Source: Escherichia coli (GTDB taxonomy: Bacteria; Pseudomonadota; Gammaproteobacteria; Enterobacterales; Enterobacteriaceae). Taken from it: a stretch of 64,000 bases of DNA. Shown here piece after piece: positions 14,123 to 15,517 of this stretch (positions within the stretch are counted from its first letter, which is position 1; the number at the start of each line of letters is the position of its first letter). A program made the translations under genes and the position numbers. The notes below the pieces were generated by a model. That model had not been told where the DNA came from. It saw nothing but the letters and a program-made list of their open reading frames with translations, and ran no database searches. The stretch lies in NCBI RefSeq assembly GCF_050320075.1, contig NZ_CP190018.1; one strand, written 5' to 3'.

Positions 14123-15517
14123 TTATGATTTCATTTTATCTGCAATATCTTCTAAGGAATCAAAGAATGCTTTGACAAAGTTGTCTTTATTAACAGTAGT
14201 AAAGTTTTGATTGTAAAATCCTACACATGCAGAAAAAATTGCTCTGCAAGTTAGCTCATTATATTTAGATGAATATAATGGTTCGACTCCACGATACACG
14301 GACCAAGAACCATGAGCTATATCAGACCTAGTCTTATACATTTCCTGAGCCACTCTAGCCCATTTTTTTTCATCTTGATAATAAATAGAAACTAATGAAG
14401 AAACACGACTTACGAAGTTCTTTGTTGTAGATGAATCCTTTTTTTCGCTACTTAGACTAACCAGCCGTTCAAGAGCCGTTGTTAATTTTACTATACGAGA
14501 ACTTTCATCCTTATCCTGTTGTGCGCTACTAAATAAATAGATAGCATCAATTAGCCTGTCTGCAATTACAGAGTTTTCATGAGGTTCTATCGCCAACTCT
14601 ATTAACCGAGAAAGAACTAACCCTAAGTCAGATTTGTAATCATCTTCAAACTTATTCCAAAACTCACCGCTATTGGCTATAGTCCCTTTAGTTGAGTAAT
14701 GATAGTTAAACATTTCGTTTGGTTTCTTGGAAAGATAAAAGCCGTCATAATTTGGGTAAGGATCTGTTGATATACTTAAAAAGTATGGGGAGATATTATA
14801 GTGCACACCAAATAGCTGTAGTATCCCAACCACAAAACATGCAATATTTTTAGCGATTCTCTGCCTACTTAACTTAGAGCGTTTGCTAACAGGGATTTTT
14901 AGGTAGTGTTTATAATGAAATTTATGAGAAGAACAAAATTTCTTAGCTAAATCAAGTTGTTGCTCAGTAAAATCATCACTAATAGTTAAGTGCATTTTTT
15001 CTGCCGATATAATATCAACTCGGCCAATAGACATTATATCTCGTTCCAACCCGTGAGCTAAAATAGGATAATAAAAATCCTCTTCAGACATTTCTCTCCT
15101 TGTTAGTTTTAATGTTTTATTTAGGAGGATAGTACATCCACTCCTGTCGCAACTGCCGTTCTCAACCCAAATATGCATAAACAATATTTTCTTAAGATTA
15201 CTTAAAAATTCATCGGTAGTAACTAGCATTTCTAAGCGATTTGATTTTATAAATCTAGCCGAAATAGCATATAACTTCTCATAAGAGGCATATGATAGAT
15301 GAATTTGAGTTCTAGAAAGATCTGTTCTTCCTTTTATTAGTTCATATGGTGCATCTATGGTCATTCCCAATGAACCAAAATTACCATTATATTCTTTTTT
15401 GTAAAATTCCATAAAATTAGATGAGGATGTTAACTCTTTATTTATTCTAACAGCCTCATCAAGAATAAATTTAAAATCTTTAACGTCTTCCAAACTGGCA
15501 CTCATCATTTTCACCAT
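14123..15517 (-). CDS. AT-rich cargo protein in P4 psu-int hotspot; candidate anti-phage defence protein with C-terminal HEPN-like Rx4H motif
   Basis: 464-aa ORF, strongly AT-rich relative to flanking satellite genes; lies in the variable slot between psu and int; C-terminal 'KTRSDIAHG' resembles the HEPN Rx4-6H motif; no family recognised by eye. Confidence 0.6.
   Translation of the reverse strand: MVKMMSASLEDVKDFKFILDEAVRINKELTSSSNFMEFYKKEYNGNFGSLGMTIDAPYELIKGRTDLSRTQIHLSYASYEKLYAISARFIKSNRLEMLVTTDEFLSNLKKILFMHIWVENGSCDRSGCTILLNKTLKLTRREMSEEDFYYPILAHGLERDIMSIGRVDIISAEKMHLTISDDFTEQQLDLAKKFCSSHKFHYKHYLKIPVSKRSKLSRQRIAKNIACFVVGILQLFGVHYNISPYFLSISTDPYPNYDGFYLSKKPNEMFNYHYSTKGTIANSGEFWNKFEDDYKSDLGLVLSRLIELAIEPHENSVIADRLIDAIYLFSSAQQDKDESSRIVKLTTALERLVSLSSEKKDSSTTKNFVSRVSSLVSIYYQDEKKWARVAQEMYKTRSDIAHGSWSVYRGVEPLYSSKYNELTCRAIFSACVGFYNQNFTTVNKDNFVKAFFDSLEDIADKMKS

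Follow-up and report, generated by a model that had tools for sequence, protein, structure and literature searches.

We describe here a gene in a 64,000-nt stretch of Escherichia coli DNA (below, the window means this whole stretch), which is lodged between psu and int of a P4-like satellite, and for which a role as a single-gene anti-phage defense is the best reading. On balance, we consider it likely that this cargo gene encodes an infection-activated HEPN ribonuclease (RNase), which would be a shortened, distant relative of the defense protein ApeA. The open reading frame (ORF) and the parts of its product that bear on this proposal are as follows, with residues numbered throughout in the 464-residue frame.

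14123-15517, minus strand: cargo ORF, 464 codons at most, for a predicted compact ApeA-like HEPN protein
15092-15517, minus strand: N-terminal all-helical domain, residues ~1-142 (modeled helices at 9-142), the least conserved part
14678-15091, minus strand: middle (Mid) alpha/beta domain, residues ~143-280, with an invariant YFP motif (P151) and a hydrophobic helix at 215-239
14126-14677, minus strand: C-terminal helical HEPN domain, residues ~281-464
14312-14329, minus strand: HEPN motif R397-S-D-I-A-H402 (Rx4H), predicted to be catalytic from the translation and alignments

The three-part architecture comes from an AlphaFold2 (AF2) model built on the family alignment, with a predicted local distance difference test score (pLDDT) of 82.8 and a predicted template modeling (TM) score of 0.80. 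Its N-terminal part is a putative sensor or oligomerization domain. A first-pass annotation, made from the sequence alone, had noticed that the C terminus resembles an Rx4-6H RNase motif, and this resemblance is borne out. The motif R397-SDIA-H402 is invariant in both a 22- and a 51-sequence alignment and, since R397 and H402 never vary in the larger alignment, RSDIAHG represents a strictly conserved Rx4H. The residues that are invariant across these 51 family members, which are 15-66% identical to the target, also include P151, E350, R371, Y394, and G403. The motif is set in the C-terminal HEPN domain, where the structure prediction and Foldseek comparison that had been suggested as a check revealed a four-helix up-down HEPN fold. 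The protein therefore displays both defining features of the HEPN superfamily, i.e., a four-helix up-down fold and a conserved Rx4-6H motif. HepT is the nearest solved HEPN fold for the cargo protein and ApeA alike, while nothing in the PDB matched by sequence or profile at E ≤ 10, the ApeA structures being evidently outside the copy that was searched.

The cargo protein belongs to a large family. A word-indexed search returned 27 homologous clusters, mostly from Enterobacterales, and an exhaustive profile search returned 857 clusters (at 50% identity) with E ≤ 1e-3, including 336 with E ≤ 1e-10. Most of the 857 clusters consist of proteins of 440-490 aa that align near full length. Foldseek against AFDB50 found 679 matches at E ≤ 0.001; the best 50 are all 350-512 aa long, most of them have a full-length TM score of 0.6-0.9, and at least two either have a eukaryotic label or are unlabeled. 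Many of the Foldseek and UniProt homologs are named "Apea-like HEPN domain-containing protein." The view that the protein could not be placed in a named family has thus to be abandoned, since RefSeq and the Prokaryotic Genome Annotation Pipeline (PGAP) call it "HEPN domain-containing protein," UniProt uses "Apea-like HEPN," and its profile matches that of ApeA.

ApeA, a validated anti-phage defense made of a single protein of ~600 aa, has an N-terminal and a Mid domain followed by a split HEPN domain at the C terminus; it assembles into rings of ten or twelve subunits and uses its HEPN domain to cleave the anticodon loops of tRNAs (10.64898/2026.01.26.701840). It also cleaves the genomes of single-stranded RNA phages (10.64898/2026.03.20.713152). 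The activators of Ec2ApeA are 5'-phospho-deoxydinucleotides (10.64898/2026.01.26.701840), whose binding pocket lies between the N-terminal domain and the HEPN domain and is lined by T36, S40-M42, E74, R148, R152, Y401, Y469, H487, R490, Q494, and Y525, but triggers differ even among ApeA homologs. Ring oligomers, ligand-triggered RNA cleavage, and protection sensitive to an R-to-A substitution are known only for Ec1-4ApeA and Ps2ApeA. For comparison, full-length Ec1ApeA (WP_000706972.1) and a near-identical relative of Ec2ApeA (WP_032180471.1) were recovered from E. coli genomes. The latter is annotated by PGAP as a "hypothetical protein," and its gene is part of a P2-like prophage, with baseplate genes on one side and virion-morphogenesis genes on the other.

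When the cargo-family profile was aligned by hhalign with a profile of 27 canonical ApeA, the two matched with a Prob of 80%, an E value of 1.4e-5, and a score of 51 over 260 collinear columns. This alignment spans from the first Mid strand to the catalytic helix, placing R397/H402 on R502/H507 and Y394 on Y499. Null controls, using the reversed ApeA profile and 20 column-shuffled versions of it, scored 11-18. Domain by domain, Mid matched Mid (E 1.1e-4) and HEPN matched HEPN (E 7e-4), while the N-terminal domains reached only 0.024 and mismatched domains 0.1-0.5. In an AF2 model of Ec2ApeA (pLDDT of 90), the Mid elements occur in the same order as in the cargo model, i.e., long strand, strand, long helix, and beta-hairpin, and both models have a C-terminal helical domain in which the catalytic helix ends at the histidine. 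The hydrophobic cargo helix 215-239 aligns with helix 259-278 of ApeA, which is a soluble protein. Judging by these profiles, the cargo protein appears to be a remote but detectable relative of ApeA, collinear over the Mid and HEPN domains. Like ApeA, it is encoded by a single gene on mobile elements, with the same succession of N-terminal helical, Mid alpha/beta, and C-terminal HEPN domains, and the catalytic helices share the patterns Y-x2-R-x4-H and Y-x-T-R-x-x-I-x-H. At ~460 aa, it is however about 120-140 aa shorter than the ApeA described by Gao et al. 2020 (583-601 aa).

A short ApeA homolog has been reported to be protective. A 467-aa "minimal" homolog, called Bm1ApeA in the figure legend, has no BLAST similarity to Ec1ApeA and reportedly protects E. 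coli from DNA phages, while transformation with Bp1ApeA failed, presumably owing to toxicity (10.64898/2026.03.20.713152). The text of the same preprint assigns the minimal homolog to "Brucella pseudomallei," a nonexistent species, and since text and legend disagree, the identity of the homolog that was tested is uncertain. Bm1ApeA is in the same size class as the cargo protein. Its first 133 residues are given in the supplement, and its relatives in the databases are split genes. Our comparison therefore concerns not Bm1ApeA itself but a joined, frameshifted relative, L020, which is 79% identical to it over the N-terminal 133 aa. This gene (L020:3001-4405) is split into ORFs of 161 and 301 aa by a frameshift or stop and comes directly after a Gabija-like pair (OLD-TOPRIM ATPase and UvrD helicase). 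Another disrupted copy, in Allorhizobium (L019), consists of 176-aa and 240-aa ORFs, the second of which diverges, ahead of a Zeta-toxin gene.

The cargo-family profile matches joined L020 with a Prob of 95% and an E value of 2.5e-8 over 96 HEPN columns (E 2e-12 by hmmsearch). Their HEPN domains have several motifs in common (DRLIDAI-W/KRFVTALDW, TALERL/VAFETL, F..RV/I.RRL, and Y.TRS.I.HG/YHTRSEIVHSG), whereas the first ~300 residues show no detectable similarity. Joined L020 itself matches canonical ApeA at the catalytic helix only. Anantharaman et al. 2013 described an "ApeA/BMEI1217" family of HEPN domains that are preceded by a fused N-terminal region of ~300 aa, a description that the cargo protein, as far as its sequence tells, fits at the level of the HEPN domain.

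The genomic setting of the gene is also consistent with a defense role. The relevant features of the slot are listed below, including the likely coding sequence (CDS) and its alternative.

13349-13921, plus strand: psu (polarity suppression protein), left flank of the hotspot
~13955-13985, both strands fold: hairpin just after psu, satellite backbone rather than cargo-specific
14086-14104, plus strand: cos cohesive-end 19-mer GGCGAGGCGGGGAAAGCAC, backbone edge, ~20 nt from the cargo stop codon
14123-15508, minus strand: likely cargo CDS starting at M4, 461 aa, PGAP choice (WP_235839804.1)
14123-15505, minus strand: alternative cargo CDS starting at M5, 460 aa, the start of most homologs in our first alignment (A1)
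15480-16685, minus strand: int, P4-type tyrosine integrase, same strand as the cargo gene, stop inside the cargo ORF
15512-15516, minus strand: GGTGA, Shine-Dalgarno-like sequence upstream of the likely start
15537-15564, minus strand: promoter-like site TCGAAA-16-TATAGT with an extended -10 TG, in the 3'-terminal part of int and ~30 nt ahead of the likely start

The order of the element is psu, cos, cargo ORF, and int. The 19-mer at 14086-14104 is a P2/P4-type cos end. It is a single exact match, where zero would be expected by chance, and the clones of P4 and P2 from Rousset 2022 contain the same string. On a near-identical E. coli chromosome, the surroundings of the ORF are annotated as a P4-like satellite, with a primase-helicase (alpha), a DUF5375 protein, Icd-like and ash-family proteins, followed by an AlpA-type helix-turn-helix (HTH) regulator, a protein in the sid position, Ogr/Delta, and Psu; in this record, the ORF is called "HEPN domain-containing protein" (WP_235839804.1), with M4 as start. 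Since neither a second ORF of at least 45 aa nor an Rfam family was found in the psu-int slot, the cargo gene is its sole cargo. Gene order, the cos match, and this lack of a second ORF agree with the earlier view of the slot as the psu-int hotspot of a P4-like satellite that holds one gene. The psu-int slot is an experimentally validated defense hotspot, as shown for other cassettes (Rousset et al. 2022, PMC9122126).

The ORF itself is as the first-pass annotation had it, an AT-rich reading frame of 464 codons on the int strand that overlaps the int stop codon, with a GC content of 0.33 overall (0.26 at third codon positions) and of 0.32-0.40 along its length, versus 0.51-0.64 in the satellite core. 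Two further ATGs occur at codons 4 and 5, preceded by a GGTGA. The start is probably M4 (15508) or M5 (15505), with an overlap with int of 26-29 nt, and we expect a product of 460-461 aa because most A1 homologs start at the M5 position. The promoter-like site is a consensus match only, and such sites are no more frequent there than in shuffled sequence. The hairpin folds with -21.5 kcal/mol on the plus strand and -16 kcal/mol on the minus strand (z of -3.6 and -2.9). It had been taken for a terminator belonging to the cargo gene, but it abuts the psu stop, lies beyond cos, and recurs unchanged in pFR83 and pFR86, two clones of Rousset 2022 from P4-like elements whose cargo is quite different, which makes it part of the backbone.

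The ORF is a real gene under strong purifying selection. Relative to its orthologs in Klebsiella (67% identical) and Serratia (46%), the proportion of nonsynonymous differences is 0.19-0.36, that of synonymous differences being ~0.75 (saturated), and these orthologs likewise have a low GC content (0.33-0.34). Both are within 14 nt of the int stop at their own loci. The int gene, with a GC content of 0.38-0.44, is itself below the satellite core, and the HEPN gene comes within 14 nt after int in three genera. This suggests that int and the HEPN cargo move or persist as one low-GC module.

We surveyed where the gene and its relatives occur. The psu/cos and int flanks are present in 2249 of the 5426 complete E. 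coli genomes, while the intact cargo CDS is annotated in only 15, with 99-100% identity; the survey of the slot proposed at first pass thus shows common flanks around a variable content in which this gene is rare. In Serratia, the ortholog follows int inside a full P4-like element. In Klebsiella (loci L004-L007, gene at 6001-7374), int and the gene are followed by a truncated psu of 68-82 aa, with no other satellite genes and with ordinary chromosomal flanks, and this remnant is indexed in more than 4000 assembly blocks of Klebsiella pneumoniae. Here, the satellite seems to have decayed until nothing but the integrase and the HEPN cargo remained, and these would then have come close to fixation in one lineage. 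As for more distant relatives, one adjoins a tyrosine integrase and AbiEii, one comes after a serine recombinase, and another is at a prophage edge. A tblastn search of a phage collection gave no match, and one of a plasmid collection nothing but a distant HEPN protein on a Vibrio megaplasmid.

The gene is less novel than first thought. The first-pass annotation had presented its product as a candidate for an undescribed defense protein, but the same sequence, with at least one substitution, had already been cataloged as system #19, "HEPN_Apea," in Table S1B of Rousset et al. 2022 (PMC9122126), with 75 occurrences, "1 TM," and "Likely a RNAse." System #19 starts with MSASLEDVKDF and differs from the cargo protein by one substitution in the portion shown, which ends near residue 403. 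It is essentially the same protein in the same psu-int slot, with no biological difference. The "1 TM" label probably concerns helix 215-239, which, according to the AF2 model and the alignment with the helix of soluble ApeA, is probably a buried helix of the Mid domain. The accession numbers of the cargo protein were not mentioned in the searchable papers.

How could such a protein work? Two copies may dimerize via their HEPN domains, possibly within a higher oligomer, forming a composite RNase site that would be held in an auto-inhibited state until the noncatalytic domains sense infection. Once activated, the enzyme would cleave either phage RNA or, if it resembles ApeA and DARNA in this respect, the anticodon loops of tRNAs. 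Phage growth would thereby be halted, through abortive infection or direct interference, and the population hosting the satellite could be protected from competing phages. The 5'-phospho-deoxydinucleotide of Ec2ApeA is probably not the trigger since those pocket residues that can be mapped are not conserved.

Several points weigh against an ApeA-like defense RNase. The profile hidden Markov model (HMM) searches suggested at first pass brought no clear-cut family assignment. PADLOC (including its ApeA, PD-T7-3, and PDC models), NCBIfam, and PHROGs gave no match to the cargo protein at E ≤ 1, and PADLOC was also negative for all of ten diverse relatives, while Pfam gave a marginal match to HEPN_Apea (PF18739), with an independent E value of 0.08 and 13.8 bits over residues 342-434. 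The same Pfam model gave nothing significant on the 22- and 51-member alignments and detected none of the 51 relatives at E ≤ 0.001. That it misses the threshold here says little because it also fails to match Ec1ApeA and Ec2ApeA (L002:3001-4806 and L003:3001-4752) at E ≤ 10, both of them validated; judging by these matches, the Pfam model and the defense system of the same name cover different clades.

The relation to ApeA hangs on one profile-profile alignment at 80% probability. HMM-versus-sequence searches found no link between the family and ApeA, the HMM of canonical ApeA detecting none of 174 family proteins, and single ApeA sequences gave only sub-significant local matches to the family profile. 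The register is ambiguous in the N-terminal half of the HEPN domain, where E350 falls on E371 of ApeA or on a later helix. The mappable pocket residues H487, R490, and Q494 correspond to the nonconserved D382, K385, and V389, and this comes with N-terminal domains that align at an E value of 0.024 only. Finally, one distant relative lies among housekeeping genes, the cargo sequence is absent from the tested-system tables of Rousset 2022 and from the supplements of a 2026 P4-hotspot screen, and we infer oligomeric state, substrate, and trigger alike.

There is also a variant of the defense reading, which we put forward only tentatively. The ~450-aa proteins may form a separate, widespread HEPN defense family, which would retain only an ancient ApeA scaffold, lack the dinucleotide pocket, use its own N-terminal domain to sense a different trigger, and travel as an int-coupled module that can outlive its satellite, as the int-HEPN remnant in Klebsiella does.

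A selfish role is unlikely. The cargo protein would then be a toxin or addiction module stabilizing the satellite or the int-cargo remnant, or it would act on helper or host RNA for the benefit of the satellite, and unrelated phages would not be its target. No candidate antitoxin is present in the slot, be it an MNT gene, a second ORF of at least 45 aa, or an Rfam RNA, and the gene is intact without a partner on chromosomes of three genera. In addition, single-protein HEPN defenses such as ApeA and DARNA are auto-inhibited without any antitoxin. A HepT/MntA HEPN-MNT toxin-antitoxin system was rejected on the same grounds, as the neighbors are int and psu, likewise in Klebsiella and Serratia, with no MNT partner. 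HepT is a minimal HEPN protein of ~130 aa neutralized by an adjacent MNT antitoxin, whereas the cargo protein has ~280 extra N-terminal residues and no partner. Identity with DARNA (PD-T7-3), a single HEPN protein of ~456 aa that acts by abortive tRNA anticodon cleavage and forms higher-order oligomers, was rejected as well. In DARNA, the HEPN domain is N-terminal (R117x4H122) and followed by a Pds5-like C-terminal sensor of single-stranded DNA, whereas in the cargo protein it is C-terminal, and PADLOC gave no PD-T7-3 match.

It is quite improbable that the cargo protein is instead a full ApeA, i.e., a ring decamer that cleaves tRNA anticodon loops once its conserved pocket has taken up 5'-phospho-deoxydinucleotides produced by phage nucleases. 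The collinear remote homology, the identical order of three domains, and the shared catalytic helix motif would all fit, and ApeA homologs themselves vary in their triggers. However, the PADLOC ApeA model (PDLC02157), which readily finds Ec1ApeA (E 0) and the Ec2ApeA relative (E 1.3e-12), misses the cargo protein, the 120-140 aa by which it is shorter are accompanied by only a marginal likeness of the N-terminal domains, and the mapped pocket residues have been replaced.

The close translational or transcriptional linkage to int, with its stop/start overlap here and at most 14 nt in the orthologs, might point to a service in the life cycle of the satellite, such as processing of satellite or helper transcripts or assistance in hijacking a P2-like helper. 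P4 biology indeed relies on RNA processing, as in the case of CI RNA. We nevertheless regard this as very improbable because the slot holds hundreds of unrelated cassettes and relatives exist outside satellites; a core life-cycle role is excluded since the content of the slot varies and the cargo gene occupies it in 15 of ~2250 E. coli genomes with the same flanks. The HEPN superfamily does include noncatalytic domains, but an inert scaffold binding nucleotides or another ligand, or a decaying gene, is scarcely credible given that the catalytic helix keeps its R, H, Y, and G without exception in members only 15-66% identical to the target, that purifying selection is strong, and that the CDS is intact in all 15 E. 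coli copies.

The rest of the window contains other mobile genes. On the left, a 1069-aa reverse transcriptase (2262-5471, plus strand) corresponds to the PADLOC system RT_UG5-nitrilase (DRT), with E = 0. Ash-family, HTH, and integrase fragments come next, at ~5608-6637, and an AbiEi antitoxin gene is found further left. The region 2262-6637 resembles what is left of a second P4-like element, cargo included, in tandem and just upstream of the primase gene of the intact satellite. Beyond the satellite int, P22-like prophage genes extend over 17000-56000, including those for an O-antigen acyltransferase (17886-19013), a tailspike (19010-20977), and ejection proteins (from 21401), with a tRNA-Thr(cgt) at 55717-55792 (minus strand) at their far end. 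Since these P22-like genes are found directly beyond int, the satellite is at the edge of a P22-like prophage and not at a bare tRNA site.

Taken together, these findings make an infection-activated HEPN RNase the favored reading of the cargo gene. The claim is incremental, as HEPN RNases are expected in the P4 hotspot, the present one has been on record as a likely RNase since 2022, and protection by a minimal ApeA has reportedly been observed. If it is true, the protein would be a natural minimal ApeA and, being shorter and divergent in its pocket residues, could reveal the parts of the scaffold on which auto-inhibition, oligomerization, and the choice of trigger depend. Should the ~450-aa proteins be a family of their own, current defense finders would systematically miss a common family of RNase immunity. 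If the cargo protein does defend, a large family found in many bacterial phyla, which PADLOC misses and which thousands of Klebsiella pneumoniae genomes carry, seemingly as a fixed gene, could be annotated as immunity.

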